Shown here: piece after piece, positions 38,949 through 60,342 of the stretch | How positions within the stretch are numbered: position 1 is the first letter of the stretch | Layout: the number at the start of each line of letters is the position of its first letter | Source of the DNA: a virus | Lineage: Duplodnaviria; Caudoviricetes | Strand: one strand, 5' to 3' | Virus record (IMG/VR): IMGVR_UViG_3300025289_000029 | Location: 1 to 61,576 of that record | Length of the DNA stretch: 61,576 nt | Notes under the pieces: model-generated | The model's database searches: none | What the model was told of the DNA's origin: nothing | What the model saw: only the letters and a program-made list of their open reading frames with translations | Translations under genes and position numbers: made by a program

Positions 38949-39180
38949 AGTGCAGACAACTTCGGGCTGTTACACCGTCCCCGACCCTGATGATGAGTGC
39001 GCTTGGTGTGGCGACGCCAGACGGCAGCACACTGAGACAGGTTGCAGGTTGTGTGGAAGATACCCGTGGGAGCGCGGCATCTACGCCTGCACAGGATTTG
39101 TCGAACGGGACAAGGCAGCAGCCCGTAGGAGAAAGTTTATGAAGGCCGCAGGTCTCCTCGATGCCAACAGTTCTAGCTGA
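38935..39180 (+). CDS. Cys-rich hypothetical protein
   Basis: CAWC...H...CRLC...CTGF. Confidence 0.5.
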   Translation: MTKIRVQTTSGCYTVPDPDDECAWCGDARRQHTETGCRLCGRYPWERGIYACTGFVERDKAAARRRKFMKAAGLLDANSSS

Positions 39181-42587: not shown

Positions 42588-43264
42588 TTGCACTGTTTCT
42601 ACTCTCCCATCGTCAAATCCGACTGCTCTATCGAAACCCTACCGTTGCTGTCTGGTATATAGTCTTACCCATCCTTCTCATTGTCATTGTGATGCCGGTA
42701 ATGAAGGTCGTCGTAGTGGACAGTCCGGCCCAAGTCATACCAGGGTTCACGCTGATGTTTTCCGCTTTTCTGTCTACAACGCTCGCTGGCCGAATCGTGC
42801 GCGACAGGCAAAGTGGTGTCTGGCGGTGGTTTATGACAACGCCTACGTCTCCGTTTATTATCATCACCGCGCCCGCTCTAGCCGTGCTCAGTTTGGGTGT
42901 TCTACAAACTGGGACTGCGTTGGCGTTCGGGAGTATGTTCTACGGTCTGCACGGAGTTCGTATTGGTCTGTTTGCTTTCCTTGCGATACCGATAGGCGCA
43001 GGGCTGTTACTTGCCAGCCTGACCGATGACCTAGCGTTGCAGGCAAACGTCCTTAACCCGTTGGCCCTTGTGTCGTCTGTGCTCGGCGGTGCTGTGATAC
43101 CTTTATCCACACAACCGAGCTGGCTACAGTTTGCAGCGCGGTTCAGTCCTCACTACTACGGAATGGATTCAAGTTTTCTGAGTATGGTGGTCTTGCTCGG
43201 AGGCGGCGCATCACTCTCACTATTTGCCGCATTTAGACTCAGGAAACTGACTTGGCCCGTTTAA
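42581..43264 (+). CDS. ABC-2 type transporter permease (orphan)
   Basis: About 6 TM; IPGF..MF; IVRDRQSG...TP; LGG...P....PSWLQ..A..SP..Y. Confidence 0.75.
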   Translation: MVIALFLLSHRQIRLLYRNPTVAVWYIVLPILLIVIVMPVMKVVVVDSPAQVIPGFTLMFSAFLSTTLAGRIVRDRQSGVWRWFMTTPTSPFIIITAPALAVLSLGVLQTGTALAFGSMFYGLHGVRIGLFAFLAIPIGAGLLLASLTDDLALQANVLNPLALVSSVLGGAVIPLSTQPSWLQFAARFSPHYYGMDSSFLSMVVLLGGGASLSLFAAFRLRKLTWPV

Positions 43265-43575
43265 AATTAGCCTCCTGCAAACTGCCAATCTTTCGGTTAA
43301 TGGGTGCGTCAACGTTGGAAAAGGGTCGGTTTGGTAGTTATATCAACCAACCGCCAACTGCTCACTGTTGTCGAAATCAAAGCTGGCAGAGCCTCGCGCT
43401 GGCTCAGGCGCTGTGCCAGACGAGAACAACGGTGGCAGCACCAACGTTGGCACAGCGCCGACCGGCGTGGCCGCCGTCGCCAATGTTGTCGGCCCCACCC
43501 GCCAGCGTGAACCGTCAGCCACCTTTGACACAGCCATGTTCGTATCGCTGGGAGGGTAGGGTTAATTGCTAACTG
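43255..43575. repeat. Non-coding region with CCAACGTTGG-like motifs
   Basis: CCAACGTTGG 43441, CCAATGTTG 43480, TCAACGTTGG 43309. Confidence 0.55.
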
Positions 43576-43589
43576 GACAGCCTGGACTA

Positions 43590-43618
43590 TTGACATTCGA
43601 CCCCGGCTGTGCTAAACT
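43590..43618 (+). promoter_or_regulatory. Sigma70 promoter
   Basis: TTGACA-17-TAAACT with a TG upstream of the -10. Confidence 0.65.
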
Positions 43619-43997
43619 ATCCATAGTTCAAGAGAGAGGAGGAGGCCCAAGCTAGAGGGCCAACAACAGGATAGGGAGTGGCAACGGGAACCGACGAGAA
43701 GGCCCAAGAAGAGCCGAACCCGCGCCTGCGAAGCGACGACCACAACTCATGTGACGGCTGCCAGCGGCGGTAGTAGGAAAACCCACTGACAGCAAAGGCC
43801 GACTCAGAACCCACCCTGACCTGCGCTCGATCCCACATAGACCTGACAACGGCCCGCAGGCAGGCCGAGGCGAATGGGATGCTCGCCCGTCGGGAAGCGG
43901 TTATAGCTACACCAAAAGCTGAAGGACAGAAACAGAACGCCAGCGTCCGTCTGCGCTGGGAAACACACAAGCGAATCTTAATAGAAAGGAGTCCAAC

Positions 43998-44369
43998 ATG
44001 ACAGATAATGGAACCGTCCACGTCACGGGCGAAGTCGTCAGTGTCAAGCCGAAGTGGGATCGCTTTGACAAGAACGCTGTTGGCGTCGTCGTCAAGGCTG
44101 ACAACAAGCCGTTCTGGTTCAGGTGGTCTCCGCAACGGGGAGCGTTGAACCAGGGTGATACCGTCGAGCTAACTGGCAACGTCACCGGACAGGGTGAGCC
44201 CAAGAAGAAAGGCGACCCACCGATGACGTTCCTGAGTGGAGTCCAGATAGTCGGGACAGAGTGCGGCCACGCAGTCGTCACGAACCAAGGTGGTGTCTAC
44301 TACTGTGACTCGTGTGGGACACCGATGACGGTCGCGCCTACCGCCAGCCTCGAAGCACCCCGACCGTAA
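43998..44369 (+). CDS. OB-fold-like + zinc-ribbon protein
   Basis: VTGEVVSVK...GDTVELTGNV...CGH...CDSCG; strong RBS. Confidence 0.6.
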   Translation: MTDNGTVHVTGEVVSVKPKWDRFDKNAVGVVVKADNKPFWFRWSPQRGALNQGDTVELTGNVTGQGEPKKKGDPPMTFLSGVQIVGTECGHAVVTNQGGVYYCDSCGTPMTVAPTASLEAPRP

Positions 44370-44403
44370 CCAACGTCTGTAACCAACAGAAAGGGAAACT
44401 CCA

Positions 44404-44556
44404 ATGCCGAACAAGCTCAGTGCCGAGTCCACTATGTTCGCTGACCTCCGCGACTTCTTCTCCACACCGGAGAGGCCGCTGACCATCCAAGAGGTCAACG
44501 AGCTAACCGCCACTGAACTCAAGGAGCTTCTCACCGCCATTCGCGCGGCGAAGTAG
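44404..44556 (+). CDS. 50-aa hypothetical protein (not in ORF track)
   Basis: MPNKLSAESTMFADLRDFF...IRAAK*; RBS gaaaggga. Confidence 0.6.
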   Translation: MPNKLSAESTMFADLRDFFSTPERPLTIQEVNELTATELKELLTAIRAAK

Positions 44557-44598
44557 CCTTCGAGCCAACACAGTCTAACAACAGAAAGGGAACCAACA

Positions 44599-45630
44599 AT
44601 GAACGAGTACCCATGCGAGAACGACTGCGGGGTCAACCCGTTTCCGAACCAGTCCCTACTCGACCTCCATATGCGGGACTTCTGCCCGAAGCGTTACGCT
44701 GACCAGCCCGCTACTGGGGAGGTAGTCGTGCCGCTGCAACAGTCTCACCTGGATGTCGAGACCAGCGCACAGTTCCTCTACCCGAAGCCAGTCGCAGGTC
44801 TACGGATAGAGGCTCCTGTCAAGGCCAAGATAGAGCGCATCCTCAAGGCCGCCGAGCAGACTGGTGAGCCGCAGAACCTGCTACTCATCGGGCCGTCGGG
44901 CTGCGCCAAGACGACGCTCGCATTCCACATCGCAGGGATGCTAGGCCGACCGCTGGCGAAAATCAACATGCAGATGATAACCGAGGCCAGTCAGGTCTAC
45001 GGTTTCCGCGAGGCCAACGCTGTCGAGGGAACGACCTACAAGCTCGGTCAGTTTCCCATCGCTGTCAGCACCGAAGGCTGTATCGTCCTTCTGGATGACG
45101 TAGCGCACGTTCACGACAGAACGATTACCAACGGTCTACTGCCTGCGCTGGACTTCACCCGTGTCGTCTGGATCGACTACCTCGGTGAGTTCATAAAGGT
45201 CGCTCCCAAGGTCATCATCATCGGCACGGGCAACCAGGGCTATCAGTACGGTGGCGCGACGAAGCTCGACCGCGCAGTGGTCAGCCGTTTCGAGAACCGT
45301 ATCTACATGAGCCACCCACCGGAAGATGTCGTGGTTGATATCCTGACCGAGCGGACAGGCATCAACGCCAGCGACGCTCAGAGGTTGGCTCGGTTCGCCA
45401 AGCTGCTGCGCGACGCCCGTGCTCCAGTCGAGGTCGATATGCGTGGTCTGCTCGCCGCCGCGAAGGATATGGCTTACGGCGCAAGCTACTTCGATGCCGT
45501 GACCTACACGCTTCTGGGCGATCTCGATGAGCAGAAGATGGAGGACATCAAGTTCAAGATTTCCGACAGTATGACCGAAGCGGAGAACGCGGCAGCCAGC
45601 AAGGACATTCGGTGGGAGGTGTGGCGTTGA
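44599..45630 (+). CDS. MoxR/CbbQ/CobS-like AAA+ ATPase with N-terminal C2HC finger
   Basis: GPSGCAKT, LLDDV, GTGN.G..Y.G...LDRA..SRF. Confidence 0.85.
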   Translation: MNEYPCENDCGVNPFPNQSLLDLHMRDFCPKRYADQPATGEVVVPLQQSHLDVETSAQFLYPKPVAGLRIEAPVKAKIERILKAAEQTGEPQNLLLIGPSGCAKTTLAFHIAGMLGRPLAKINMQMITEASQVYGFREANAVEGTTYKLGQFPIAVSTEGCIVLLDDVAHVHDRTITNGLLPALDFTRVVWIDYLGEFIKVAPKVIIIGTGNQGYQYGGATKLDRAVVSRFENRIYMSHPPEDVVVDILTERTGINASDAQRLARFAKLLRDARAPVEVDMRGLLAAAKDMAYGASYFDAVTYTLLGDLDEQKMEDIKFKISDSMTEAENAAASKDIRWEVWR

Positions 45631-45718
45631 GCACCGACGAGCGCATCGTGGCGGTAGCGGTCTTGCTGGTGGTAATCGCGTTCACCGTCATCAGTCTGGT
45701 AGAAAGGTGGTGATATAG

Positions 45719-47731
45719 ATGACAACAGAAGACGCCAAGAAGTACATGGCAGGTGAGGCAATCAGCCGTGTCTGGCGAGTACGCTCTAGCAGTGACGAAG
45801 TAGTGGAACTCAAGTACCTGCTGGAGAATATGCAGGACGCCGCTGAGCTTCTGGGCCGGTCGCAGGACTTCCGTATCATCTGGTCAGGGATGGAGAACCT
45901 TCCTGGCTACACAGACTACGGCAAGAAGGTCGTGGGGATGAGCTACGGCTTCGTCAAGAACGAGCCGTTCCCACTGGAGCCTAAGCTCGTGGATGTCCTG
46001 ATAGGTGTCCTACAGCACGAGATGGGACACGTCCGGCAGGGAAACATCTGGGCCTACGAGCCTATCCGTGGCCGTCGGGCTCGCGGACGCCGGATGGGAA
46101 ATAAGGTCTACGAGACGGTCGTCAGCCGTCATCAGGTCTACCCACCTGTTCAGTTAAACCAGTACGAGCGTCGGGCTCACGGCATTCTGGCTGACGTGAA
46201 TATCGACACTGCCATGATTCGAGAGCACACGTTGCGTGGCGCTTACATCATGCGTGGCCGTCAGTATTTCGCGTCTGACCCGCGACACGCTCAGGTGTTG
46301 AACGACCTCATCAACCAGCCGGAGCCGCTTGATTGGTTTGCCGTTACGGTTCTCTGGTCGGCGTTGCAGGTCTACTACGACAACACGGTCGTTGGCAAAC
46401 TCACAAGCCGACCGGACTTCCTGGCCCTAGCCGACATTCTGGGGAAGCTCAACGAGCTAAGCATCGCCGCTGGTCAGTTGACTATCGACGACCTGATGGA
46501 CAACGAGACGCTGAAGAAGCTGATACTGGATGCAGGTCGCATCCTTGAGGACTATGACAGTCAGCAGCGGCAGGGTCAGCAACCACAGCAAGGCCAGTCT
46601 CAACAGCCGTCGCTTATCAGCAGTGGTGGCACTCAGGCTCAGAGCCAGAAAGGAGAGGACGATGACCAAAAGCAGGAAAGCGAAACAGCAGACCAGGAGA
46701 GTGCGTCGGGCAGTGGTGAGGGCGAGGACGAGGCGGACGCAGATGGAGACGACGGTGGAGAAGAAGAAGGTGGCGAAGACCAAGCAGTCGGAGAAGATGG
46801 CTCGCAGACAGGCACGACGGGAGAAGATGGCGACGCCACCGGAAGTGATGACTCCCACGGTCACGGCCACGGATGCCTGATGCAGCTTGACGCTGGAGAT
46901 GTGCCGATGCCGGAGGACTTGGCAGAGGCCGTGTTCCAGGCTGTCGAACAGGAAGTCGAGGACGTGTCAGAGCTGGTCGGCTGTGGTTTCAAGAGCCGCC
47001 GTCCAGGTGTTGACCACGAGCGGGTGAAGTCCATCACCGAGGGTAAGGTTGGCGAGCTACAAGAGTCCATCGACATCCTGACTGAGATAGCGACACAGCG
47101 GACGTTGGGGACTAACCACGGCAATCTCTCCGAAGAGTTACTGTGGAAGCTGGGCACCGGAGAGGACAACGTGTTTGAGCGCCAGAACGTCGTTAGCGAA
47201 GTGAGTCTGCGTCTAGGTCTCGTGGTCGATATCTCAGGCTCCATCTACGACGCTCAGTGGGTGATTATGCAGGACACCATCGACGCCTTCATCGAGGCGT
47301 TTGGGCATCGGCATGACATAGACCTACTGGTGTCGGCGTATCACTCCAACGAAGCGTGTCGCATCTGGGAACCTGGGTTCGACTTCCCTTGCTTGCAGGA
47401 CGTTCGGCCCAGCGGGAGCACTCCGACGCTGCCAGCTCTAAAGCTGATGCTGGAGCGCATGAACGAAGTCTGTCAGGAGAGACAGCGAACCATCATCCTG
47501 TCTGTCACCGACGGCGAACCTAATACTGGTGGCAGCGAGCCCTACGTTCGTCAGTGGGTAACGGAAGTGCAGCATGAGCATGATGGGTTGCTACAGGTCA
47601 TCGGTGTTGGCGTAGGCGTGGCAGAGTCCACGCTCAGCAATCAGTACGACCGTTGGTTGTGCGTCAAGTCCTTCAGTGAGCTACCCGCCAAGCTGAAGGA
47701 ACTGATGCTACAGATTCTATTGGAGGGTTGA
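45719..47731 (+). CDS. CobT-like VWA protein with HExxH domain and acidic linker
   Basis: HEMGH; D/E/G-rich linker; MIDAS DISGS, GSTPT, TDGEP. Confidence 0.85.
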   Translation: MTTEDAKKYMAGEAISRVWRVRSSSDEVVELKYLLENMQDAAELLGRSQDFRIIWSGMENLPGYTDYGKKVVGMSYGFVKNEPFPLEPKLVDVLIGVLQHEMGHVRQGNIWAYEPIRGRRARGRRMGNKVYETVVSRHQVYPPVQLNQYERRAHGILADVNIDTAMIREHTLRGAYIMRGRQYFASDPRHAQVLNDLINQPEPLDWFAVTVLWSALQVYYDNTVVGKLTSRPDFLALADILGKLNELSIAAGQLTIDDLMDNETLKKLILDAGRILEDYDSQQRQGQQPQQGQSQQPSLISSGGTQAQSQKGEDDDQKQESETADQESASGSGEGEDEADADGDDGGEEEGGEDQAVGEDGSQTGTTGEDGDATGSDDSHGHGHGCLMQLDAGDVPMPEDLAEAVFQAVEQEVEDVSELVGCGFKSRRPGVDHERVKSITEGKVGELQESIDILTEIATQRTLGTNHGNLSEELLWKLGTGEDNVFERQNVVSEVSLRLGLVVDISGSIYDAQWVIMQDTIDAFIEAFGHRHDIDLLVSAYHSNEACRIWEPGFDFPCLQDVRPSGSTPTLPALKLMLERMNEVCQERQRTIILSVTDGEPNTGGSEPYVRQWVTEVQHEHDGLLQVIGVGVGVAESTLSNQYDRWLCVKSFSELPAKLKELMLQILLEG

Positions 47732-48506: not shown

Positions 48507-48740
48507 TTGACAATGATAACATCCCAAGAATGTCTGTTCGCAGAATGTAACGTTCAGCCAGCCTACGGGCCGTTCTGTAAGATAACCTGGGAAGTGCCTT
48601 ACTGTGACGGCTGTAAGCGCCACGCCGCCGAGCTTTGGGCGGTTCAAGGCTGGCTGTTCTGCATAAAGTGCTTCCCTCTCTGGATCGTTGGGGGAGATAT
48701 CCCCCCGTTTCTACCCAGATATCCGCAGAGGGCTACGTAG
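48507..48740 (+). CDS. Cys-rich hypothetical protein
   Basis: CDGC...FCIKC; RBS aggagg. Confidence 0.5.
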   Translation: MTMITSQECLFAECNVQPAYGPFCKITWEVPYCDGCKRHAAELWAVQGWLFCIKCFPLWIVGGDIPPFLPRYPQRAT

Positions 48741-48893
48741 ATGTGGACACTACTGATAGCGGCGCTCATCACTGGCATCTGGTCAGCCGAGCAGAGCCTC
48801 ATCGCCGCGTTCTTCCCAGAACGCAGGCCGCACGGTCAGGACTTCTGGGGAGCAATCACAGTGGGTCTCCTGTTCGCAGCGGCGGTAGTGTGA
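48741..48893 (+). CDS. 50-aa membrane protein (not in ORF track)
   Basis: MWTLLIAALITGIW...VGLLFAAAVV*; abuts both neighbours. Confidence 0.5.
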   Translation: MWTLLIAALITGIWSAEQSLIAAFFPERRPHGQDFWGAITVGLLFAAAVV

Positions 48894-49270
48894 TGTCTAA
48901 GTCCTACGTGTCTCTGGAACAGAAGGTCTGTCTGGTCTGCGCCAAAGCCTTTGACTCCGGCGCTGTCCTTCTGGACACCAGGCTCAAGGACAGCATGGAA
49001 CGGTTTACCGTCACCGGCTGGGACTTGTGTCCCGACGACAAGGCGCGGTATGACGATGGATACATCGCGCTCGTGGAAGCGCGACCACCTACCGAGGGTG
49101 ACACTCTCAAGCCAGACGAGGCGTACCGGCTGAGGCGCATCGTACACATTCGGGAGGCGGTGTTCACCACCATCTTTAACATCCCGCCAAGGCTTGAAGA
49201 TGGGACGATGCTTGCGGTGACGTTCGCTGAGCCAGCAGTTATGGATATGCTGGAGGAGATGTCGAAGTGA
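48893..49270 (+). CDS. Conserved mobile-element hypothetical protein
   Basis: KSYVSLEQKVCLVC...TGWDLCP....DDGYIALVE. Confidence 0.65.
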   Translation: MSKSYVSLEQKVCLVCAKAFDSGAVLLDTRLKDSMERFTVTGWDLCPDDKARYDDGYIALVEARPPTEGDTLKPDEAYRLRRIVHIREAVFTTIFNIPPRLEDGTMLAVTFAEPAVMDMLEEMSK

Positions 49271-49455
49271 GCGCGTTTGGAGGAGGCTTCGTGATGAGAC
49301 GTAAGCCACCTCTACGCATCCGCCTACGCTTCTGGCTCTCACGCCTGCGACACCAACGCGGACACACGTCGTACTGCGACAAGTGTGCCAAGAGGACGAT
49401 GGTGAGCTACAACAAACGCATCGGTAACTGGCCGTTGAAAAGAGTAGTCAAATGA
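49267..49455 (+). CDS. Hypothetical protein
   Basis: Coupled ORF; YCDKC. Confidence 0.45.
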   Translation: MSAFGGGFVMRRKPPLRIRLRFWLSRLRHQRGHTSYCDKCAKRTMVSYNKRIGNWPLKRVVK

Positions 49456-49670
49456 AAAGTTTCTGGAGGGTCTTCTTCGTGGCCACAGACGTTGGCGCGC
49501 TCGGCTTGTTCCTGTTCTGGGAAAACTGGTTCGCAATGGTCTGGGTCGTGATAGCGGCGTTCTGGATGGTGTCGGCGTGGACGTGGAAGGATATTGCAGA
49601 TAAGTGGCGTCGGCGGTCTAAGGTGCTGCTGGAGAAGATGCACGCCGAGCACGACCAAGCCCGACCCTGA
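49452..49670 (+). CDS. Small membrane protein
   Basis: Two Trp-rich hydrophobic segments. Confidence 0.5.
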   Translation: MKSFWRVFFVATDVGALGLFLFWENWFAMVWVVIAAFWMVSAWTWKDIADKWRRRSKVLLEKMHAEHDQARP

Positions 49671-49680
49671 CCTATTAGAT

Positions 49681-50635
49681 TGACTAACCCCAAGGGAGGC
49701 GTTGGCGGTTGAGCTAAGCCGGAGGTAATTGGTGACGCCATCTGGCTTTTAACTGTCAACGTCTCCCTATTTCTCCACTTAATACCTATTAAAACGTTTA
49801 CAATGTTGGCAGTTAACCTTTTTGGTTGGCTGCCGACTTTTTTTTGGGGAGATAGGGTTGGTAGTCAATTGAGACTAAGTATCAATAAGACAAAGTAGCC
49901 ATCAAAGTGACGTTGGAAGTGTCAAAATTGGCACTGAGTGGATAAAGTAAGTGGAGACTTGCTTCATAATTGGTCAAGTAGGTCGTTGGGGGGGTCAATG
50001 TTGGGGCTGAGAGGGATTTAGACAGTGTAGAGTTTGTCAATGTAGAGTTTGTCAATGGTGGCATACCGGAGTTCGGATTCTAGAACAGGGATAATCAAAT
50101 GTTGCAGCAAAGTTGGAAGTGGCAGCCGCTGAGCCTATTCACGTTTGGCGCTGCCAATGTTGGCAGCCCGTTTAAATTAGACGTGCGCGGAGACGCTCAG
50201 CGTTGGGAGTGTCAATGCTGACAGCCAACGTTGGCGTTGAGTGTGGGAGAGGGTTCCCTACAGGCTATCAGTTTTGACATTTTCAACAGTGGTTGGCCTT
50301 TTAAACTTATCACTCCAGAGCCTCACAGTGTTGGCGGTGTCAATAGTGACCGCCAATGTTGGGAGTTGATTTGGATAGCAGGTCGCTGAGGTGTGCTCAC
50401 CGTTGGTGCTACCAATGTTGGCCGAGGCCCATAACCATATCACACCAGAGTCTCTCAGCGGTGGACGTGCCAAAGGTGGCAGAAGCACACGCAAGCCCAT
50501 AATTTAATCACAACAGAGCCTCGGCACGTTTGGCGCTGCCAATGTTGGCGGGTCGCGGCCTGCGCCCGGTAGAACCCCTACTCTAACCCTAACGTCAACG
50601 TTCCGTGTTATGTCAACCTAAGCCTGCCCTTGGCT
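49681..50635. repeat. Non-coding array of degenerate CCAA(T/C)GTTGG and TTGG motifs
   Basis: CCAATGTTGG at 50154, 50353, 50412, 50539; CCAACGTTGG at 50225; 25-bp direct repeat at 50140 and 50525. Confidence 0.8.
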
Positions 50636-50636
50636 G

Positions 50637-50650
50637 CGAACGCACGTTCT
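50637..50650. promoter_or_regulatory. LexA/DinR (Cheo) box
   Basis: CGAAC-gcac-GTTCT. Confidence 0.6.
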
Positions 50651-51078
50651 GAAGAGACAAAATTGACCGTCTTCAGATACAAAAGATTCACAACTTTGAC
50701 GGTTGACACCATTGACAGTTGCTCTACTTATATGAGACAATTGTCGCAGATAACGACAGCCCCCTCCCCCGACAGCAGGCGCGCAGACCGACACGGCAGG
50801 CGCTAGGCCGAGGGGCGAGAGGGGCCGAATAGGGGAGAAGCCGGGAAGACGGGACACACACTCGCGCCCACCGGAGCCCCTGCGACAGACCGACAACCTG
50901 TTAGAGAGAGAACGGCGGTAAACGCCGTTGAACCGTGTAATGAGAGGTTGACGCTAACCCTCGCCGGTAGGGAGTAGAGCCTATCTAGCCTACGGCAAAA
51001 TGAGCGGCGAGATTGAATAGGGGGAGAACGTGATAGGCAAGCGCTTCTCCCCTCTCTCGTTACACGGTTCAGCGGTAT

Positions 51079-51092
51079 CGAACATTTGTTCT
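51079..51092. promoter_or_regulatory. LexA/DinR (Cheo) box
   Basis: CGAAC-attt-GTTCT just upstream of the RBS of the 51116 gene. Confidence 0.65.
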
Positions 51093-51115
51093 AGTGAACA
51101 AGGAGTTGACATAAC

Positions 51116-52051
51116 ATGAGCAAGAAGCGAAACCGCCGACCGATGCCGACGCCGCCGACAGCGCCGGAAGCGGTAACACCCGACGCCGCCGCCGTTGTAG
51201 CCGACGCGCAATCGCTCGTCTCTGACGAGCCGGAAGCGCAGACGCCCGACGCGGCGAAGGCAGTTGCCGAAACCGTCCCGACGCGAGCCTACGTCAAGAG
51301 CCTGCGAGCCTTGTCAGTCAAGGCAGTCAAGGCAGGCGACACGGCAACCGCCGACACCCTGACAGCGGCAGCTAACCTAGCCGAGCAGCAGGTAGAACAG
51401 CAGGAGCAGGAACGCAAGGCGAAGACAGCGCACAGCAGCGCCCTTCTCGCGTTCCTTCAGAAGCTGTTGCCTATCTGCTACGCAGGCGACATCAGCGACC
51501 GCGAGCGCATAGCGAAAGCGCTCGGAGTCACCGCCGACGACATCCCGAACGCGCCGCCTAACTCCCCCTTCACGGCGCGATTCAGCCTTGAACCGCCGTT
51601 TGTCGAGAACGCGACACGCGGGCGGAAGCAAGGCGACACCGCCCCCCGTGCGACAATCAATGCGAGCGACCTAAAGGCTGCAAGCGTTGAAGCATTCTTG
51701 ATGCCCGACGGTAGCGAGATGCCGCCGACGACCGTACACGGCAAGCCTGTCAAGGCACACCCTGTTGCCTACCTTGACGCGCTAGGCGTCTGCCGGTATG
51801 ACCGCGACTGCACGAACGCAGAGCACACAGCCGCAGCGGAGCGCGGCGATAAGGAAATCGCCGGACGGACGTTCACAGATGCGCAGCGGCAGAAATTCGC
51901 CGCAGGTGACGGGCTCAGGCACGGCGACAGCGCAAGCCGAGAGTTTGCGTCACACGGCGCTACCGACACCGTTCACAACGCCCGCATGACCGACGGAAGC
52001 ATTCAGCCCGTCAAGGACATCGTAGCGCAGATACTCGCAACCGCGAGTTAG
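51116..52051 (+). CDS. Hypothetical Trp-free protein (candidate pre-early/anti-defence)
   Basis: RBS aaggag; 311 aa; inside the CCA/TGG-free segment. Confidence 0.7.
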   Translation: MSKKRNRRPMPTPPTAPEAVTPDAAAVVADAQSLVSDEPEAQTPDAAKAVAETVPTRAYVKSLRALSVKAVKAGDTATADTLTAAANLAEQQVEQQEQERKAKTAHSSALLAFLQKLLPICYAGDISDRERIAKALGVTADDIPNAPPNSPFTARFSLEPPFVENATRGRKQGDTAPRATINASDLKAASVEAFLMPDGSEMPPTTVHGKPVKAHPVAYLDALGVCRYDRDCTNAEHTAAAERGDKEIAGRTFTDAQRQKFAAGDGLRHGDSASREFASHGATDTVHNARMTDGSIQPVKDIVAQILATAS

Positions 52052-52119
52052 TCACAGCGCCGCCGTTCTCTCTCTCTCACTTCTACCTGAACGAACGTAA
52101 CAGACAAGGAGAAGAACCG

Positions 52120-52329
52120 ATGAGCAGATACGCAAGGATGCGCATCCCCCGCTCCGAATACCTCCGAGTAGCGAACTACGGAGCGACGCCGGAGCGACTC
52201 GTCAACGCGAAGTGCAGCGCATGCGGCAGGAAGATAACGAGCGTCAGCCGCGACCGTGCTTTCCGCTTCCTACGCGAGCATGAAACGCTACACTTCCTAG
52301 AGCACGACCGAGAGGGGCGAAACCGATGA
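52120..52329 (+). CDS. Small C2H2-like protein
   Basis: CSAC...HETLH; RBS aaggag. Confidence 0.6.
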   Translation: MSRYARMRIPRSEYLRVANYGATPERLVNAKCSACGRKITSVSRDRAFRFLREHETLHFLEHDREGRNR

Positions 52330-52568
52330 TAGACATAGAGACAACCGACGCAGCAATCGCAGCCGCCCTTGACGAGATAGGCCGCAGCCGCCGCGAACTT
52401 GCGTTGCAAATCGACGGCGAGATGCAACGTATTTTCATTCGCGCCGTCACCCGTGCGGTAGTCACCGCCTTGACGCCGCCGGAGATGCGGCCCTATCTGC
52501 CGAGCAAACGCCTAACAAGCGAACCCCGCTACGACGACAACGGCAGGCGAGTCAAGGCGCGACGGTAG
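52326..52568 (+). CDS. Hypothetical protein
   Basis: ATGA coupling. Confidence 0.55.
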   Translation: MIDIETTDAAIAAALDEIGRSRRELALQIDGEMQRIFIRAVTRAVVTALTPPEMRPYLPSKRLTSEPRYDDNGRRVKARR

Positions 52569-52583
52569 TCAGTGACAGCCGCA

Positions 52584-52640
52584 GGTAGAGGGGCGAGGCG
52601 ACGACGACTTTAAAGAACACGCCGACGCCCGCCCCCTACC
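52584..52640 (+). terminator. Long GC-rich hairpin after the operon
   Basis: ggtagaggggcgaggcg...cgcccgccccctacc; no clear U-tract. Confidence 0.45.
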
Positions 52641-52782
52641 GCAGACCGACCCCGACCGCGTGGAAATTGCGCGGATCGGCAGAGCCACGAAGGGTCAGGA
52701 CATCTCTCATACGTACCAACTTTTAGGTTTAGAGAAGAACATATGTGCGACTACATTAGCACACATATGCTTGCTTCAGCAG

Positions 52783-53499
52783 CTAAGCTGAGCACTCAGG
52801 ATGCCAACTGCGCTCACCTGTTGCCATATCTATCAACCACCAAGCGCCCTGCTTATCTTGGGCGAAGTCAACGCTCCAGAAGTTGTAATGGACACAGACC
52901 GCACCGGCTTCTTCTGCCCGCGTTGCCAGCTCAGGCGGCGGCTCATACTGTTCTAGCTCTGTCAACGCTTCCTTCCATTTGGGCGGCTCAGCGCCGTGGA
53001 AGCGCATCGCGTCCTCTGTCCAATAGAAGTGTCGGCAGACAACTTTGCCATCACGGACAAAGTATCTCCATTCGCGGGCGATAGGATGCCCACCGAAGGC
53101 TTCAAACCCACTCTGTAGATCAAGGAACTGACGTAGCATAAAGGCCGCAGGCTGTGCGCGTTCTAACCAGAACTTGACTTCGTTGTCTTCAACCGTTGCC
53201 CACAGTACCTGTCTGATCCCCTCTGGGTCGCGGATTAGATAGCTATCGGGGCCTTGATGCTTTGCGCTCGCCAAGTCACTTCGCACGAACAGCGGATAGC
53301 CGAGTTCGTCAGCCACAGACGCAACCTTTTCAACCGTTGCCGCGAGCACTTTGTCAAACTCAGGTAGACGCTTTCTCGACTCCATTACACTGACCCAGAC
53401 AGCGTGGTCATATTGGACGAACCTAGTCTCCGGCACGCGCAAGTGAGCTATGCGTGGGAACCAGTAAAGAGCACTGTTCAACGCGGGTGCAGTTTCCAT
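52783..53499 (-). CDS. ATP-grasp (R2K-like) protein
   Basis: YPLFVRSD..SAKH; REWRYFV; WSVDF......WWLIDM. Confidence 0.7.
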   Translation of the reverse strand: METAPALNSALYWFPRIAHLRVPETRFVQYDHAVWVSVMESRKRLPEFDKVLAATVEKVASVADELGYPLFVRSDLASAKHQGPDSYLIRDPEGIRQVLWATVEDNEVKFWLERAQPAAFMLRQFLDLQSGFEAFGGHPIAREWRYFVRDGKVVCRHFYWTEDAMRFHGAEPPKWKEALTELEQYEPPPELATRAEEAGAVCVHYNFWSVDFAQDKQGAWWLIDMATGERSWHPECSA

Positions 53500-53754: not shown

Positions 53755-54001
53755 CTAGCATCTCCACTAGAACGTCTCCATGACACGGTAGGGGGGCACA
53801 CCAGCACCCTAAACGCCTACCACGAAGCTCATCGAGCGCGGCCATCAACTCTGGTGTTGCTTGTATCCACGTTCTGTATAGGTCAATCACCTTCCTGCGG
53901 CTGCCGTCCCTGCCGATCTTAAACGGATTCCCCCATTTCGACGGTCTGCCGATGTAGACATCGAACTCACTGTCACGTCTGTTGACAACAGTGGTATTCA
54001 T
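53747..54001 (-). CDS. DUF4326 family protein
   Basis: DVYIGRPSKWGNPF; L.GRRLGCWCAP.PCHGDVL. Confidence 0.9.
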   Translation of the reverse strand: MNTTVVNRRDSEFDVYIGRPSKWGNPFKIGRDGSRRKVIDLYRTWIQATPELMAALDELRGRRLGCWCAPLPCHGDVLVEMLDD

Positions 54002-54797: not shown

Positions 54798-54916
54798 CTG
54801 ACCTCAGCTACTCTACAGGCGTCTGATTTATTATCAGACCCGCCCGTAGCGTTGAAGACAGCTACGACTATCGCCAGTGCTATCACTACGGCGCAGACCG
54901 TGAGAACGATTTTCAT
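54719..54916 (-). CDS. Small exported/membrane protein
   Basis: Signal-like N-terminus; ATGA coupling. Confidence 0.5.
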   Translation of the reverse strand: MKIVLTVCAVVIALAIVVAVFNATGGSDNKSDACRVAEVRWEFARNGDPKIYASLNVQRLCGYTP

Positions 54917-55224
54917 TTCAAACCTCTCAGTAGCTCCAACAACGACCGCTGTTTGTCAAAAGACATCTTGCTGATGTCTGTGGCCAGTTCGGGCAGAACG
55001 TCGATCTTTACGTATTTTGCACCCATGAGTGTATACACATCGGTTGCCAACGCTTCCGCAAGCCTGACCGCGACCCCAATCGATACGTTCTTCACCTGTC
55101 CGCACTCGACCTGTGATAGATACCCCTGGCTCATTCCAGCGGCCAGGGCCAATTCTTTTTGGGATAGCCCAAGCTCTCCTCTGATCGTTTTGACTCTCTG
55201 GCCGAGTTCTAACCCTGTAAGCAC
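54913..55224 (-). CDS. XRE-family HTH regulator
   Basis: LSQKELA..AGMSQGYLSQVE.G. Confidence 0.9.
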   Translation of the reverse strand: MLTGLELGQRVKTIRGELGLSQKELALAAGMSQGYLSQVECGQVKNVSIGVAVRLAEALATDVYTLMGAKYVKIDVLPELATDISKMSFDKQRSLLELLRGLK

Positions 55225-56564: not shown

Positions 56565-57230
56565 ATGTCAAAGACCTCTCAGAGCTATAAACAGATAGAC
56601 TCTAAAGTACAAAATATGGACTCTAACTGTCCTAAATGCTGGGCTATAAATAAGACCCGTAAAGTCCATGAAGGCTATCCCTACTGTTGGAGCCATTTAG
56701 GACGTGCTCAACGTTCAATAATCCGAAAGCAGAAACAGCTTGTAGTAGCTGACAGATTCGGGTTTTACACTCGGTCACTCTCTGACAGTATTAAACTCCT
56801 GCGACTGAAGGCAGAGCAGTCCAAGGATATAGGTGCGCTCTCTAATCCAGATGTTACTGAAGAACTTATTCTGGCTCGCTTACTGGTAGCAGACTTCTTT
56901 GAGAAGAACAAAGACGCGGCCCAATTACCTCTTAAAGATCTCACTGATGTCCTTAACACTATCTCCAAGATCGCTCGAACAGCTCAGACTATAACTGAAT
57001 CAGACAAACACGCTTTATCCCAGGAGATGTTGCGTGCTATAATCAATGCGATAAGCCATGCCTTCCATAAAGCGAACCTCCACTCCACACCAGAAGAGCG
57101 GGCCACTGTCTTTGCATCCGAAATCGCAAGAGTATTTGCGGGAGACCCTATCGAAGAGTATCCTGCGTCCATACCAGCAAGAACAGACAATAGACCTTCT
57201 TACGTGGACGGCGAAGTACAGACGGTTTAA
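56565..57230 (+). CDS. terS: Terminase small subunit (putative)
   Basis: Upstream of TerL; C.A...C..H.G...GFY...EEL.LAR. Confidence 0.6.
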   Translation: MSKTSQSYKQIDSKVQNMDSNCPKCWAINKTRKVHEGYPYCWSHLGRAQRSIIRKQKQLVVADRFGFYTRSLSDSIKLLRLKAEQSKDIGALSNPDVTEELILARLLVADFFEKNKDAAQLPLKDLTDVLNTISKIARTAQTITESDKHALSQEMLRAIINAISHAFHKANLHSTPEERATVFASEIARVFAGDPIEEYPASIPARTDNRPSYVDGEVQTV

Positions 57231-58761
57231 CGATCAGCCTCCTCAAATTCTCCCCGCACTCAGAGAAGTCTACCGAGACAACCATCCTGATATTGTCATC
57301 CTCAAAGCTGCACAGGTCTTCATCTCCGAATGGCTTATCAATTGTTGCCTCTGGGTGACTGAAACAGGCTACGCTGGCAGAGGTAACGGACTCTATGTGA
57401 TGCCTAATCAGGTTCACATGGATGACTTCAGCCAGGGTCGCATAGGTGAGGCCATCCAACAGTCTCCTTATCTTTCAAAGCGCGTTACCAGTAACCGTAC
57501 CCGACTGCGTAAGATCGCAGGTAGAGCACTCTATCTTCGAGGCTCAGAGACAGTTATCCAGACCCGTTCTATCGATGCCGACATCGTTGTCAACGATGAA
57601 GTCGACCTCTTCCAAGAAGGAGCCGTAGAAAAGTCCAAAGAACGCTTAGGCTCCTCCGTCTCCCCGCTTTATCGCGCTGCCAGCCAGCCTACTTACCCCG
57701 AAGTTGGCATCGATGTGATGTACGAAGAAAGTGACAAACGTAAATGGTTCATCCCCTGTGGTCGTTGTGGTTACGATCAAACACTTACCTGGGATGACAA
57801 CATCGAGTTCACCACTGACCTTCAAAATGTTCGTATCGTTTGCATGAAGTGTAAGAAGCCTTTGGACATCTCCGCTGAAGGTCATTGGGTTGCTGGATAT
57901 CCAGGTAGAGATGTGCACGGTTATCACGTTAATAAACTGCTCTCTCCGCGTGCAAATCTGAAACAGATGCTTGCCCGCTTCTCAGCCGTTGAAGATGTTC
58001 AAAAACTCCAGTCTTTCTACAATGCCGACTTAGGTATTCCCTACCGTCCTCGTGGTGCTAAACCAAGCATTACCGACTTCGTTCGTGAGAACTATATCTG
58101 GAAAGAACCAGCAGGTAGGGACTCTTACATGGGCGTTGATGTTGGAACTCGTTTACATATCAGCATCATCGGACGTGAAGACTCTCTGACACCCTATCGT
58201 CTGATTGAACAGGTCTACGTTTCAGAGTTCGATGAACTTGACGCTATCTTTCGCAGATACGACCCCAAGTTGACAGTTATCGACGCTCGTGGAGACCCTC
58301 GAAAGACTCTTGAATGGGCTCAGAGATACCCCTACAAGGTCTATCGCTGGCAACACCACCCAAGCAAGACAGAGCCAGCCTGGAACGATGACACTCAAGA
58401 GGTCATGTTCGACCGCACTGCCATGCTCGATCTAATGTATGCATGGCTCAGAGCCCAACCTCCCAGATGTATCCTCCATTCACACATCTCTCCAGACTTC
58501 ACCGCTCAGCTAACGGCGCTTGTCAGAGAGCTTGTAAGAAAAGGTGGTGACGAAGGTCGCTTAGTCCCTCGATACACGTCTGCACGTCCAGACCACTACG
58601 CTTTTGCACTGGCGTTTGCTATAATGGCGGCAGCAGAGTTTGGGTCTAGAAGTACAGCTCAGGTGCAGACTGTACACAAAGACGAGCTGGTTCGGACATC
58701 TGTTGGACGGATACTCCCACGTTGGACGGGCTCTGAGATAGCGAGGAGATCATGGCGCTAA
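57058..58761 (+). CDS. terL: Terminase large subunit, lambda gpA family; start uncertain
   Basis: KAAQVFISE, DEVD, SQPT, CGRCG/CMKC, LGIPY, MGVDVG, DHY. Confidence 0.88.
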   Translation: MPSIKRTSTPHQKSGPLSLHPKSQEYLRETLSKSILRPYQQEQTIDLLTWTAKYRRFNDQPPQILPALREVYRDNHPDIVILKAAQVFISEWLINCCLWVTETGYAGRGNGLYVMPNQVHMDDFSQGRIGEAIQQSPYLSKRVTSNRTRLRKIAGRALYLRGSETVIQTRSIDADIVVNDEVDLFQEGAVEKSKERLGSSVSPLYRAASQPTYPEVGIDVMYEESDKRKWFIPCGRCGYDQTLTWDDNIEFTTDLQNVRIVCMKCKKPLDISAEGHWVAGYPGRDVHGYHVNKLLSPRANLKQMLARFSAVEDVQKLQSFYNADLGIPYRPRGAKPSITDFVRENYIWKEPAGRDSYMGVDVGTRLHISIIGREDSLTPYRLIEQVYVSEFDELDAIFRRYDPKLTVIDARGDPRKTLEWAQRYPYKVYRWQHHPSKTEPAWNDDTQEVMFDRTAMLDLMYAWLRAQPPRCILHSHISPDFTAQLTALVRELVRKGGDEGRLVPRYTSARPDHYAFALAFAIMAAAEFGSRSTAQVQTVHKDELVRTSVGRILPRWTGSEIARRSWR

Positions 58762-58970
58762 TGTGTGTCTGTAAGGACGTTGGGCTGTTCAAACTCTTCT
58801 GGACTATACAGGTTGCTGAAGGTATCACTGCTGTCTATCTATTCTTGATGCCGTGTGCGCGTTGTAACCTCTCCGCGTATTCTACCTGGCTCGTAAGAAC
58901 TCACCCGAAGCTGTCTCAGCTCATCTCGAACTTGGTTAAACAGGAGACGGTCGTTGCCGCGACAGCCTAA
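58752..58970 (+). CDS. Small Cys-containing hypothetical protein
   Basis: Overlaps TerL and portal. Confidence 0.4.
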   Translation: MALMCVCKDVGLFKLFWTIQVAEGITAVYLFLMPCARCNLSAYSTWLVRTHPKLSQLISNLVKQETVVAATA

Positions 58971-60342
58971 GTCCACACCAAAACCTCATGTGCGGATCAG
59001 CTCAACCGGACTCAAGCGTCTCGGTGGGAGAATCTTTGAAGAGTTCCTTGCTGAGCTTAGGTTCCCACAGGGTCTTCGGGCCTATGATGAGATGCGCAAG
59101 AACTCCGGCGTCGTTGGAGGCTTCTTACGCGCTATCGAAGCCAGCTTCAGGTCAGTCCGCTGGTTTACTGTTCCCGCAGATGACTCGCCCCGCGCTACAG
59201 CTCATGCTGCATTTGCAGAGTCCTGTCGTCGTGATATGCGCCTGTCTTGGGCATCTTACGTCTCCGACTCGATCACTTTCCTGCCGTTTGGATTCTCAGC
59301 AATGGAGATGGTTTTCAAGAGACGTGAAGGTCGGCAAGGTAAACCGCCTTCAATGTTCAGCGATGGGATGATCGGTTTCGATGAAATCCCGCTGATAGGC
59401 CACGACTCGATTATCGACTGGGCGTGGGATGAGCAAGACGTTAACCGTCTATCAGGCATCTGGCAGATAGCGCCTCCCACCTACCAGCGGGTGATGATCC
59501 CACGTGAGAAGTTCATGCTCTTTCGCACCAAGGCTGAAAAGGATAACCCCGAAGGCGAAAGTATTCTGCGCCAAGCCTACTACGACTACTATTCTATGCT
59601 GAGGCTCGAAGCCGTAGAGTCGATCTCTCTTGAACGTACTGGCGCTGGTATACCTGTTGTGACACTGCCAAAAGGTGCTACGACCAAAGCTGATGTAACC
59701 TCCGGTAGCGACGAAGAAGCTGCTGAAGAACTCGTTCGCTCTGTCCGTGTTGACGAACAAGGTGGTGTTATCGAACCTGAAGGTTGGAAGTTCAGGTTAG
59801 AGCGGCCTAATGGACGTGTAGACCCACAGCTTTTTGACTTAGCTATCAAACGCCACCGCTCCAGTATGCTGATGTCTGTTCTTGCTGTCTTCCTTGAGCT
59901 TGGTACAGCCAGGGTAGGCTCCTTCGCTCTTGCCAGCCAAGGTCAAAACTTCTTTGAAGCAGCCTTCGAGGGCTACGTAATGTCCTTTGAGGAGACCTAC
60001 AACGAAGAGGCCCTTCCACTGTTGTTCGCTCTCAACGGCGTAACCGATCTCCTGCCTAAGCTGACTCACGTCACTGTCGCAGGCGCAGATATCTCAGCTA
60101 TCGTTGAGGCCGTCCAGCGGTTGACACAGGAAGGCTATCTTGACTCCACCGACCCGATGATTCAGAACTACCTGAAAGACCTTATTAGACTTCCGCGTGG
60201 TGACACTGCCAAGGAACTTGAGGATATCACCAGGCCCAACCAGCCCTCATCTAACGGTGCGAGCCCTGGTGGAATTAAGCGTGACGAAGACGAAGACGAA
60301 GAAGACGATAACGGCATCGCTGAAGACGAGCTTGTCCGATGA
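58954..60342 (+). CDS. Portal protein (DUF935/Mu gp29-like)
   Basis: FGFSAME.V.K; IPREKF..FR....NPEG.SILR; ERTGAGIP; GSFAL. Confidence 0.85.
   Translation: MPRQPKSTPKPHVRISSTGLKRLGGRIFEEFLAELRFPQGLRAYDEMRKNSGVVGGFLRAIEASFRSVRWFTVPADDSPRATAHAAFAESCRRDMRLSWASYVSDSITFLPFGFSAMEMVFKRREGRQGKPPSMFSDGMIGFDEIPLIGHDSIIDWAWDEQDVNRLSGIWQIAPPTYQRVMIPREKFMLFRTKAEKDNPEGESILRQAYYDYYSMLRLEAVESISLERTGAGIPVVTLPKGATTKADVTSGSDEEAAEELVRSVRVDEQGGVIEPEGWKFRLERPNGRVDPQLFDLAIKRHRSSMLMSVLAVFLELGTARVGSFALASQGQNFFEAAFEGYVMSFEETYNEEALPLLFALNGVTDLLPKLTHVTVAGADISAIVEAVQRLTQEGYLDSTDPMIQNYLKDLIRLPRGDTAKELEDITRPNQPSSNGASPGGIKRDEDEDEEDDNGIAEDELVR

Follow-up and report, generated by a model that had tools for sequence, protein, structure and literature searches.

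A 1792-nt stretch free of CCA/TGG covers a predicted transcription unit of three orphan genes in an uncultured phage

The first-acting DNA of phage T7 is site-free. Local absence of a defence target from the phage DNA that acts first is known for restriction sites of 4-7 bp. The first-step-transfer DNA of T5 and BF23, for example, is described as restriction-site-free (PMC10644984). For Murciavirus confronted with the Type I restriction-modification system Mme2I, absence of the motif from the first-injected region is reported to decide escape on its own (PMC12455610). Shorter words are also read. The phosphorothioate (PT) defence SspABCD-SspE/SspFGH has the motif 5'-CpsCA-3' (PMC9646914, PMC8092258), RNA phages are reported to avoid ACA (PMC12151602) and MazF-resistant transcripts to avoid UGG targets (PMC6186784). 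The leading regions of conjugative plasmids, in turn, are described as GC-rich and codon-adapted and carry anti-defence genes (PMC13478746, PMC11541004).

The locus considered here belongs to an uncultured phage from soil/groundwater, whose IMG/VR record is labelled 'linear' and 96% complete and is less than the whole genome. The window, i.e. the whole stretch of DNA that was analysed (61,576 nt), holds 2164 CCA/TGG sites (CCA 1005, TGG 1159), and none of them lies on either DNA strand between positions 50869 and 52660 (0 sites in 1792 nt). This void is flanked by CCA at 50868 and TGG at 52661, which leaves a gap of 1793 nt. The second-longest CCA/TGG gap in the window measures 323 nt and the mean spacing outside the void is about 28 bases.

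The void resembles the Murciavirus and T5 cases, as far as these are described in the sources, in the local avoidance of a target, in the small unit with its own promoter and orphan genes, and in the motif being kept elsewhere. The pattern of a target motif absent locally and present elsewhere applies to it (0/1792 nt versus 2164), its status as a defence target being assumed. However, the word of the void has 3 bp where the motifs described for Murciavirus and T5 have 6-7 specified bases, and its purge reaches amino acids and is conserved in a protein family. Similarly, the RNA-phage ACA and MazF cases share with the void a bare trinucleotide as target and immunity by having none. As described, they concern one RNA strand, whereas the void lacks the word together with its reverse complement, untranslated DNA included. 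Plasmid leading regions share with the void, taken as first-acting DNA, a high GC content and distinctive codon usage; as a difference, their short palindromes are reported as not consistently depleted, and the available text of the source describes no trinucleotide void (PMC13478746). A full-text search of the open-access literature, which is no proof of absence, found no paper on a trinucleotide-free phage operon.

The void covers what appears, from its sequence features, to be a self-contained unit with its own predicted promoter. Its parts, with neighbouring elements, are as follows.

49790-50546, no strand: non-coding repeat array, CGTTGG-N5-GTCAATGTTGG / CCAAYGTTGG, of repeat families D1-D4 (D1 and D2 in 7 copies each)
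50637-50649, no strand: LexA-like box CGAAC-N4-GTTC upstream of the promoter, exact match
50712-50741, plus strand: predicted sigma-70-type promoter, TTGACA, 18 nt, TG-extended GACAAT (10/12 matches, from a consensus scan only)
50748-51115, plus strand: leader of about 370 nt, T-poor (14% T), with one CCA at 50868, defined by composition and folding
50869-52660, no strand: CCA/TGG-free stretch, from word counts
50877-50894, plus strand: 18-nt direct repeat (CCCCTGCGACAGACCGAC), left copy, at the void's left edge (D10, 83% identity to the copy at 52633)
50903-50918, no strand: left arm of a perfect 16-nt inverted repeat (I6, 100% complementary, 1141 nt to its partner)
51079-51091, no strand: second LexA-like box CGAAC-N4-GTTC, exact match, just before the ORF1 ribosome-binding site
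51116-52051, plus strand: ORF1, 311 aa, 0 Trp, AAGGAG 8-9 nt before the ATG
52060-52075, no strand: right arm of the 16-nt inverted repeat (I6)
52120-52329, plus strand: ORF2, 69 aa, basic (pI 10.8), CxxC...HxxxH pattern, 0 Trp, AAGGAG before the ATG
52326-52568, plus strand: ORF3, 80 aa, basic (pI 9.95), 0 Trp, one long helix predicted; its start overlaps the ORF2 stop (ATGA)
52633-52650, plus strand: 18-nt direct repeat, right copy, at the void's right edge (D10)
52740-52769, no strand: hairpin (CATATGTGC...GCACACATATG) between convergent units, read by eye, a possible two-way terminator

The 16-nt inverted repeat brackets the leader and ORF1. Exact matches to CGAAC-N4-GTTC, which we take to be a LexA (Cheo) box, number 4 in the window, 2 of them in the control region of this unit. 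A T-poor domain sets in directly after the promoter -10, where T content falls to 2-8%, and ends at about 52660. The void segment itself has a GC content of 62% versus 53.6%, 13.5% T, and 8% versus 26% T at third codon positions. The leader has a folding energy of -156.9 kcal/mol (z=-5.1), and 0 of 100 shuffles fold as well. The hairpin was missed by the terminator scan because it lacks a T run. An earlier note on this DNA had placed a change of both composition and gene direction at the right edge of the void. The composition shift is indeed found there, but the direction switches only about 120 nt further on, at a minus-strand gene whose stop lies at 52783. No tRNA genes were found; Rfam gave nothing at gathering score and one chance miRNA match (E=0.1), and RNA was represented in 0/20 of the runs holding the stretch.

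The same note had proposed that CCA and TGG are missing from 50871-52660, where 55-65 would be expected by chance. The computed count bears this out, and the expectation was a fair one: base composition predicts 67.3 sites in the void, its own dinucleotides 40.4 and the genome-average density about 63. When the 32 strand-symmetric trinucleotide pairs were scanned, the Poisson-expected number of gaps as long as the CCA/TGG void was 9e-25, and that of the runner-up, a 391-nt gap of CGC/GCG, was 6e-4. CCA and TGG are the sole trinucleotides among the 64 with a zero count in the void, all others occurring at least 4 times, and no comparable void was found among 2-, 4- and 5-mers without CCA/TGG. 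Avoidance of the word is local. Its density is normal in the remaining genome: the genes flanking the void hold 39-47 sites per kb and the genome-wide total of 2164 slightly exceeds the roughly 2050 expected from base counts. GATC, whose absence from the void had also been noted earlier, is missing from 48684 to 52673, and with 135 GATC sites in the window this gap of 3991 is marginal (about 0.02 gaps of such length expected from window counts). CCWGG (99 in the window) falls to 0 in the void, so that these sites are lost with the word, again as noted earlier.

An assembly artefact is excluded by two other metagenome contigs, which are 100% identical to the void and its flanks over 18113 and 20461 nt and continue through both void edges, and by the presence of the stretch in 20/21 listed sequencing runs. 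Evidence on genome ends comes from Logan contigs of low coverage, whose depth and ends cannot reveal an end or a terminal repeat. In 4 runs these contigs match the window exactly and show no variant inside the void. At low coverage, run X16 gave a 2894-nt contig (49762-52655) of depth 9.1, the adjoining bins having 4-5 and those at 54-61 kb 7-8.3, and one contig of run X18 begins at 50864; both places are spanned by contigs of runs X18 and X20. Run X16 also has loose ends at 53921-53966, which suggest strains that differ left of that point. A variant contig (L004, 4 mismatches in 674 nt), which is short and joined to unrelated sequence, has TGG inside the void, and the ban may therefore not be absolute.

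The void is maintained by selection at the nucleic-acid level. When synonymous codons of the three ORFs are reshuffled, 21.4+-3.8 sites result under the codon usage of the void itself (never fewer than 9 in 2000 reshufflings) and 33.1+-4.6 under that of 12 other genes, versus 0 observed in both cases. Codon choice in the void depends on the neighbouring codon. His or Gln codons never follow a C-ending codon (0/25 versus 98/414 elsewhere), although 43% of void codons end in C; nor do Gly codons follow a T-ending codon (0/21 versus 158/509), codons starting with A follow xCC (0/118 versus 144/1657) or G follow xTG codons (0/19 versus 156/483). The 405 nt of non-coding DNA in the void likewise hold 0 CCA/TGG. 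The purge thus extends to codon choice, codon junctions, non-coding DNA and amino acids, the encoded proteins having no Trp, as the earlier note had observed, and no Met followed by G/A/V/D/E. Since 607 of the 5370 possible single substitutions in the void would recreate CCA/TGG, the word must be excluded continuously. Depletion of tRNA-Trp was ruled out as a cause, since out-of-frame and non-coding positions are also without the word. Deamination hypermutation was rejected as well: CTA, TAG, TCA and TGA are mildly raised (99 versus about 72 expected), T is scarce on this strand and the ORFs are unbroken.

The footprint of this purge is conserved in relatives at the protein level. ORF1 and 7 distant homologues (27-42% identity) have 0 Trp among 2558 residues. 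Met followed by G/A/V/D/E, which forces TGG, accounts, as Met-Asp and Met-Val, for 2 of 36 Met in the family versus 15.9 expected (binomial 3e-7, for proteins that are not phylogenetically independent). This small family shares the motifs AHPxAYLD, CYYERxCP and HGDAAxR. Otherwise the three proteins are orphans. ORF1-3 gave no match in Pfam, PHROGs or PADLOC, a PDB sequence search gave none and the protein atlas no usable one. The ORF1 model (mean pLDDT 62.7) matches no fold in PDB or BFVD at E<=0.001, and that of ORF3 (pLDDT 85.6) consists of a helix at 4-49. Thus family, fold and structure searches recognised no anti-defence family or fold in ORF1-3.

Among 50,697 phage records, neither tblastn of ORF1 and its homologue P0008 nor blastn of 50500-53000 gave a match. 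No relative was found in viral contigs scanned with ORF1, TerL, homologue P0004 and alignment A2 (alignment A1 of the ORF1 family being too variable for such a scan), and none in genome contigs scanned with A2. Degenerate-pattern scans of viral contigs gave 2, 5 and 40 loci, with 0/7 and 0/40 family members by tblastn. The family gained no members from profile searches with A1 and A2, and the 3190-aa protein P0011 was discarded as a spurious Kelch-repeat match.

Site avoidance is also a property of the genome as a whole. Palindromic 6-mers number 275 versus a naive expectation of about 960. Outside 50547-52660, 16 of the 64 are absent, GGWCC occurs 0 times versus 119 expected and CCSGG 3 versus 99. 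Such heavy reliance on site avoidance makes a defence-evasion logic plausible. The genome's forbidden words are rare inside the void too (3 versus 45.3 expected), which indicates long residence in the same host range and speaks against the recently acquired foreign element that the earlier note had considered. Nevertheless the unit is not in all respects the cleaner part of the genome: of the 30 forbidden-word sites of the window (reduced list, 34 words), 5 fall within 50565-52219, among them both sites of AGCGCT.

Taken together, the void suggests that some factor reads the short word CCA/TGG on the phage DNA. We prefer, tentatively, to explain the void as local avoidance of the word in an early operon which has to evade a reader acting on DNA. 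The segment would form one transcription unit, made up of a sigma-70-type promoter close to consensus, a U-poor leader with marked structure and three orphan genes linked in translation, and selection would have cleared the duplex word from the DNA of this unit. As the word stands at normal density elsewhere, the reader would matter for the void unit only. The early operon could in this way remain undamaged and functional for as long as an activity that reads the word on DNA persists in the cell. This activity may be a defence of the host or, with lower probability, a function of the phage. We infer that the void unit may be early, that the reader may be a defence and that the three proteins may neutralise it. 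The logic would be the one by which T5-like and T7-like phages keep their first-acting DNA free of sites, here carried down to a 3-bp word. It is more doubtful that a factor reads a bare 3-bp word early in infection and that trinucleotide-free early operons are a recurrent, undescribed phage counter-measure with a footprint in proteins and with the three orphans as inhibitors.

Several observations weigh against the early-operon reading. The earlier note had suggested that a genome end near 52660 enters first; contigs of other assemblies run through both void edges. The array beside the void has 43 CCA/TGG in 757 nt (56.8 per kb) and would be exposed too if it entered together with the void, which is awkward for the word as a simple cutting site on entering DNA. 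Moreover, the genes for DNA polymerase, primase-helicase and other presumably early functions have normal word density. No system cutting or binding bare CCA/TGG was found in the literature searched. The nearest is Ssp, whose modification motif CCA is the void's word (PMC9646914) and which is the only system found there that reads CCA itself as a three-letter DNA site. In the account available, however, SspE senses PT on host DNA and acts as a PT-sensing nickase; CCA-specific nicking was presumed and is not borne out (PMC9646914), so that loss of CCA is not known to protect a phage. Of the defence-evading purge proposed in the earlier note, the void, its selection and its own unit with orphan genes stand, while the link to Ssp is weak.

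Control by a phage protein would give the void another, unlikely origin: the operon may have been cleared of half-sites so that a protein binding the TTGG/CCAA-rich arrays, such as the HTH_3 regulator encoded nearby (54913-55224), neither binds nor spreads there. Depletion begins upstream of the void, with 3 sites (50631, 50709 and 50868) in 50547-50868 versus 11.7 expected (Poisson P=0.003), and its onset coincides exactly with the last array repeat (50546/50547), as such a reading would have it. The same holds for CAAYGTTGG, which occurs 12 times in the window versus 0.9 expected, 8 of them in the array, and is found in two control regions (49.8-50.5 kb and 43.3-43.5 kb) and at one more site. 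However, all NTGG and TGGN are absent, beyond TTGG/CCAA, and a 3-bp ban far exceeds the need of a 10-bp operator. Moreover, the word has a normal density of 37-47 sites per kb in a second unit (43.3-49.7 kb), which is likewise arranged as array, promoter and leader.

Rather unlikely is the proposal that the phage carries a mark on CCA/TGG elsewhere, and that the unit enters unmarked, either evading modification-dependent restriction or for reading by host enzymes. The mark would perhaps be placed by one of the two DNA methyltransferases encoded, of the N6_N4 type (39161-39847) and of the D12 type, fused into a head protein (1671-4235). The slight excess of CCA/TGG elsewhere agrees with it. A dense protective mark should nevertheless make extreme palindrome avoidance needless. 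The 62 palindromes not holding CCA/TGG total 252 versus 850.5 expected, and those holding the word are split (CCATGG 0 versus 12.6, TGGCCA 13 versus 14.7). Nor are the sites spaced more evenly than by chance (CV 0.953 versus 0.905+-0.019 simulated).

We consider it very unlikely that the operon, perhaps encoding an inhibitor, escapes targeting and spacer sampling by a host type I CRISPR-Cas system with a strict CCA PAM. Such a PAM predicts a duplex 3-bp word missing in both orientations, and CCA is reported to be functional with the type I-B system of C. difficile, where CCN/YCN all work (PMC8406132). PAMs of the CCN/YCN type do not fit the void, which holds 81 CCG, 36 CCC and 31 CCT, and the 2164 sites elsewhere in the genome remain targetable. 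An NGG-type PAM was rejected separately, AGG and CGG being present in the void. Two other candidates were also set aside: a primase recognition triplet, for which a priming-free operon has no reason, and Chi or RecA-preferred GT-rich words, which a phage would gain by having.

A constraint on RNA has as little probability. Here the transcript would resist a UGG-cutting toxin of the MazF type, one specific for UGG being reported (PMC6186784), together with RNases that prefer U-rich sites. The onset of the T-poor domain at the predicted transcription start would fit, as would the footprint in the relatives' proteins, which concerns sense-strand TGG. However, the reverse complement CCA is equally absent, needlessly for a UGG reader, and void and transcript do not match, the void starting about 120 nt inside the transcript and ending about 80 nt before the hairpin. 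Furthermore, CCA/TGG occurs at a normal density of 37.5 per kb in the other U-poor leader (43625-43997). Finally, an origin of the void by chance, as a by-product of composition or through recent import of a foreign cassette, to which the deviant composition and the imperfect direct repeats at both void edges might point, is close to refuted by the 40 sites that the void's own dinucleotides and the 21 that its own codon usage still predict, by the forbidden-word list that it has in common with the genome, by the protein-level footprint in diverged homologues and by the lack of a match to any of the phage records searched.

Avoidance of a bare word thus goes further here than local freedom from restriction sites. 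The complete ban on 3 bp differs in being kept against some 600 recreating mutations, in dictating amino acids and in being traceable at 27-42% identity. A reader of very low specificity is implied, one whose action is confined to the void unit and spares the remaining 60 kb, and the ban is explained by none of the defence, modification and RNase systems checked. Should the reading be done by machinery of the phage itself, the void would mark an undescribed cis-acting requirement. If the reader is a defence, the three orphan genes would be candidate inhibitors of a new kind, and the footprint of no Trp and no Met followed by G/A/V/D/E would offer a simple handle for finding such operons and proteins in metagenomes.

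The stretch from 50869 to 52660, hereafter the void, contains no start of the trinucleotide CCA or of its reverse complement TGG (together, the word), and the absence noticed in an earlier note proves to be far beyond chance. The flanking sites lie 1793 nt apart, the second-longest CCA/TGG gap in the window being 323 nt, and the void would be expected to hold 67 occurrences from base composition or 40 from dinucleotides. Each of the remaining 62 trinucleotides occurs there at least 4 times. In a comparison of all 32 strand-symmetric trinucleotide pairs, chance would yield 9e-25 gaps of this length for CCA/TGG, the value for the runner-up (CGC/GCG, 391 nt) being 6e-4, and a k-mer gap scan of the window revealed no similar void for 2-, 4- or 5-mers unrelated to CCA/TGG. 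Outside the void the word is not depleted (2164 occurrences in the window against about 2050 calculated from the window base counts), and its spacing elsewhere is no more even than chance. The accompanying claim that GATC is also absent stands in so far as none occurs between 48684 and 52673, but this gap is only marginal because GATC is rare throughout the window (135 sites).

The void belongs to one unit, composed as follows.

Features of the void unit (repeats at the void edges and around ORF1 from a repeat scan)
49790-50546, non-coding array of CGTTGG-N5-GTCAATGTTGG / CCAAYGTTGG repeats (757 nt, 43 copies of CCA/TGG)
50637-50649 and 51079-51091, exact CGAAC-N4-GTTC boxes flanking promoter and leader
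50712-50741, plus strand, promoter-like TTGACA-18-TG-GACAAT (consensus match)
50748-51115, plus strand, leader
51116-52051, plus strand, ORF1 (311 aa)
52120-52329, plus strand, ORF2 (69 aa)
52326-52568, plus strand, ORF3 (80 aa)
Both void edges, imperfect direct repeats
Bracketing leader and ORF1, perfect 16-nt inverted repeat

Depletion of CCA/TGG starts at 50547, right behind the last repeat of the array, with only 3 starts in the first 322 nt against 11.7 expected. T content drops to 2-8% straight after the -10 of the promoter-like site, and the leader (about 370 nt) has a much more stable predicted fold than its shuffled versions (z = -5.1). Shine-Dalgarno sequences are found at ORF1-3, and ORF2 and ORF3 overlap via ATGA. 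The window holds four exact CGAAC-N4-GTTC boxes, the other two being at 39692 and 47369. We take these to be possibly LexA-type boxes, which, if correct, would hint at SOS control of the void unit and at a Gram-positive or Chloroflexota-type host. A second unit at 43.25-49.7 kb has the same layout of array, TTGACA promoter, T-poor leader and plus-strand operon. Its non-coding array (43250-43590) is built on CCAAYGTTGG / GTCAATGTTGG, and the leaders of both units are about 370 nt long with 10-14% T. Of the two, only this second unit has a normal CCA/TGG density (37-47 per kb), so the void is no general property of such control regions or of U-poor leaders. Two much weaker anomalies lie in its MoxR-VWA operon: 429 nt without the dinucleotide TA (46615-47044; expected number 5e-5) and 2273 nt without CAAA/TTTG (44064-46337; expected number 3e-5).

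The void reflects selection, not composition. Synonymous redrawing of ORF1-3 with their own codon usage gave 21.4 ± 3.8 sites with a minimum of 9 (2000 draws), and redrawing with codon frequencies taken from 12 other genes gave 33.1 ± 4.6, against 0 observed. Codon choice in ORF1-3 depends on the neighbouring codon. His/Gln codons after a C-ending codon number 0/25, despite 43% C-ending codons (98/414 in the 12 other genes), and the same holds for Gly codons after a T-ending codon (0/21; 158/509), A-starting codons after xCC (0/118; 144/1657) and xTG codons before G (0/19; 156/483). The 405 non-coding nt within the void are likewise without CCA/TGG. Of the 5370 single substitutions possible in the void, 607 would create the word, so its removal must be continuous. 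A hint that individual sites can occur in the population comes from L004, a short metagenome contig (1312 nt) that is 99.4% identical to window positions 51821-52494 (4 mismatches in 674 nt), one mismatch, C-to-T, making a TGG inside the void. L004:1-638 is unrelated GC-rich, bacterial-like sequence joined to the void copy inside ORF1, and the contig may be either an assembly chimera or a genuine alternative context.

ORF1 has two near-identical and seven distant relatives, the latter of 27-42% identity and 269-353 aa, all on short contigs; the motifs common to the family include AHPxAYLD, CYYERxCP and HGDAAxR. ORF1 and its seven distant relatives, eight diverged proteins in all, contain no Trp in 2558 residues, compared with 1.5% in the 12 other phage genes. 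Of the 36 Met in these eight, only 2 precede a residue that makes ATG-G unavoidable (Gly, Ala, Val, Asp or Glu), against 15.9 expected, although the binomial value of 3e-7 overstates independence because the proteins are related. Judged from these proteins, the TGG footprint has plainly been kept at 27-42% identity.

IMG/VR rates the record as 96% complete and 'linear'. The window is not the complete genome, since two metagenome contigs (L002/L003), 100% identical to it over 18,113 and 20,461 nt, run on at least 472 nt past its end at 61576, where the record breaks off within a gene. One of them reaches 68,267 nt, a contig of 65,193 nt carries a close homologue, and the full genome probably exceeds the window by several kb.

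Gene map from protein family scans of the window
1671-4235, head protein, D12 methyltransferase fused to XkdF-type protease
5894-6847, major capsid protein
Up to 18.5 kb, tail genes
Minus strand, replication block (DNA polymerase, UDG, ribonucleotide reductase, PD-(D/E)XK nuclease)
33032-34408, primase-helicase-like ATPase
39161-39847, N6_N4 methyltransferase
44.6-47.7 kb, MoxR-VWA pair
Right of the void, minus-strand block (R2K ATP-grasp protein, DUF4326, HTH_3 regulator)
57058-58761, large terminase
58954-60342, portal

The closest terminases from cultured phages, those of SPO1-like Bacillus phages, are only 27-29% identical; SPO1-like phages package long terminal repeats. The metagenomes place the phage in soil, sediment and groundwater, and the void stretch is present in 20 of the 21 runs listed. 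The head protein is a single 854-aa ORF combining a D12-class adenine methyltransferase domain with an XkdF-type prohead protease domain, an arrangement suggesting that the methyltransferase may be carried in the capsid or processed with it. Contigs of four runs show six variable positions in 40 nt (61085-61124), inside the ORF running off the window end, the remainder of the 17.5 kb compared being invariant. In run X16, clustered contig ends with unrelated continuations (53921-53966, inside the DUF4326 gene) suggest strains alike to the right and differing to the left, towards the void.

Avoidance of restriction-type words is unusually strong in this phage, indeed extreme. The window contains 275 palindromic 6-mers against a naive expectation of about 960, or about 890 when an order-1 simulation of the first 20 kb (there 93 against 297) is extrapolated. 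Outside 50547-52660, 16 of the 64 palindromic 6-mers are wholly missing, GGWCC occurs 0 times (119 expected) and CCSGG 3 times (99 expected). Such a spectrum indicates a host range rich in restriction systems. The void shares the avoided-word list of the genome (the 48 strongly avoided words occur 3 times in it, where its own composition predicts 45.3), which argues against recent import from another host background. Its palindromic 4-mers number 78 against 148 ± 13, and its 6-mers 7 against 39.9 ± 6.7. Compared with the remaining genome, the void is not cleaner across the board: both AGCGCT sites found in the window lie in it (51040 and 51517; elsewhere 0 against 20 expected), as do 2 TGCGCA sites (the other 3 lie elsewhere in the window, where 19.2 are expected). 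On a reduced list of 34 words, the window has 30 forbidden-word sites, 5 of them in 50565-52219.

Because coding and non-coding DNA alike lack CCA as well as TGG, its exact reverse complement, the simplest reader is one recognising DNA as a duplex or as either single strand. The earlier note had proposed a first-entering genome end purged of a site recognised by host defence, naming SspABCD-SspE/SspFGH phosphorothioate defence. This proposal finds partial support, in that selective, local avoidance in one promoter-led unit is borne out. In the literature searched, no system other than Ssp emerged for which CCA by itself is the three-letter site recognised on DNA, but the passages of PMC9646914 consulted do not show cutting by SspE at CCA. 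The word-rich neighbouring array is a problem for a simple model of cutting at CCA and keeps alive the possible involvement of an array-binding protein of the phage itself. A UGG-specific RNase exists (PMC6186784), but as reader of the word it leaves the absence of CCA unexplained. The extreme palindrome avoidance, and the fact that CCATGG is avoided totally, sit badly with a protective mark at CCA/TGG. With CCG, CCC and CCT plentiful in the void, the pattern is not that of a CCN-type PAM.

The logic of site-free first-acting DNA is tentatively favoured for the void unit, with somewhat less than even confidence, because the word is missing from a single promoter-led unit only, in a phage whose survival otherwise depends on site avoidance. 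T5 and T7 are precedents for site-free first-acting DNA. Murciavirus offers another (PMC12455610). A 3-bp word would be too frequent for genome-wide removal, and may thus have been removed only from the unit needed while its reader is still active.
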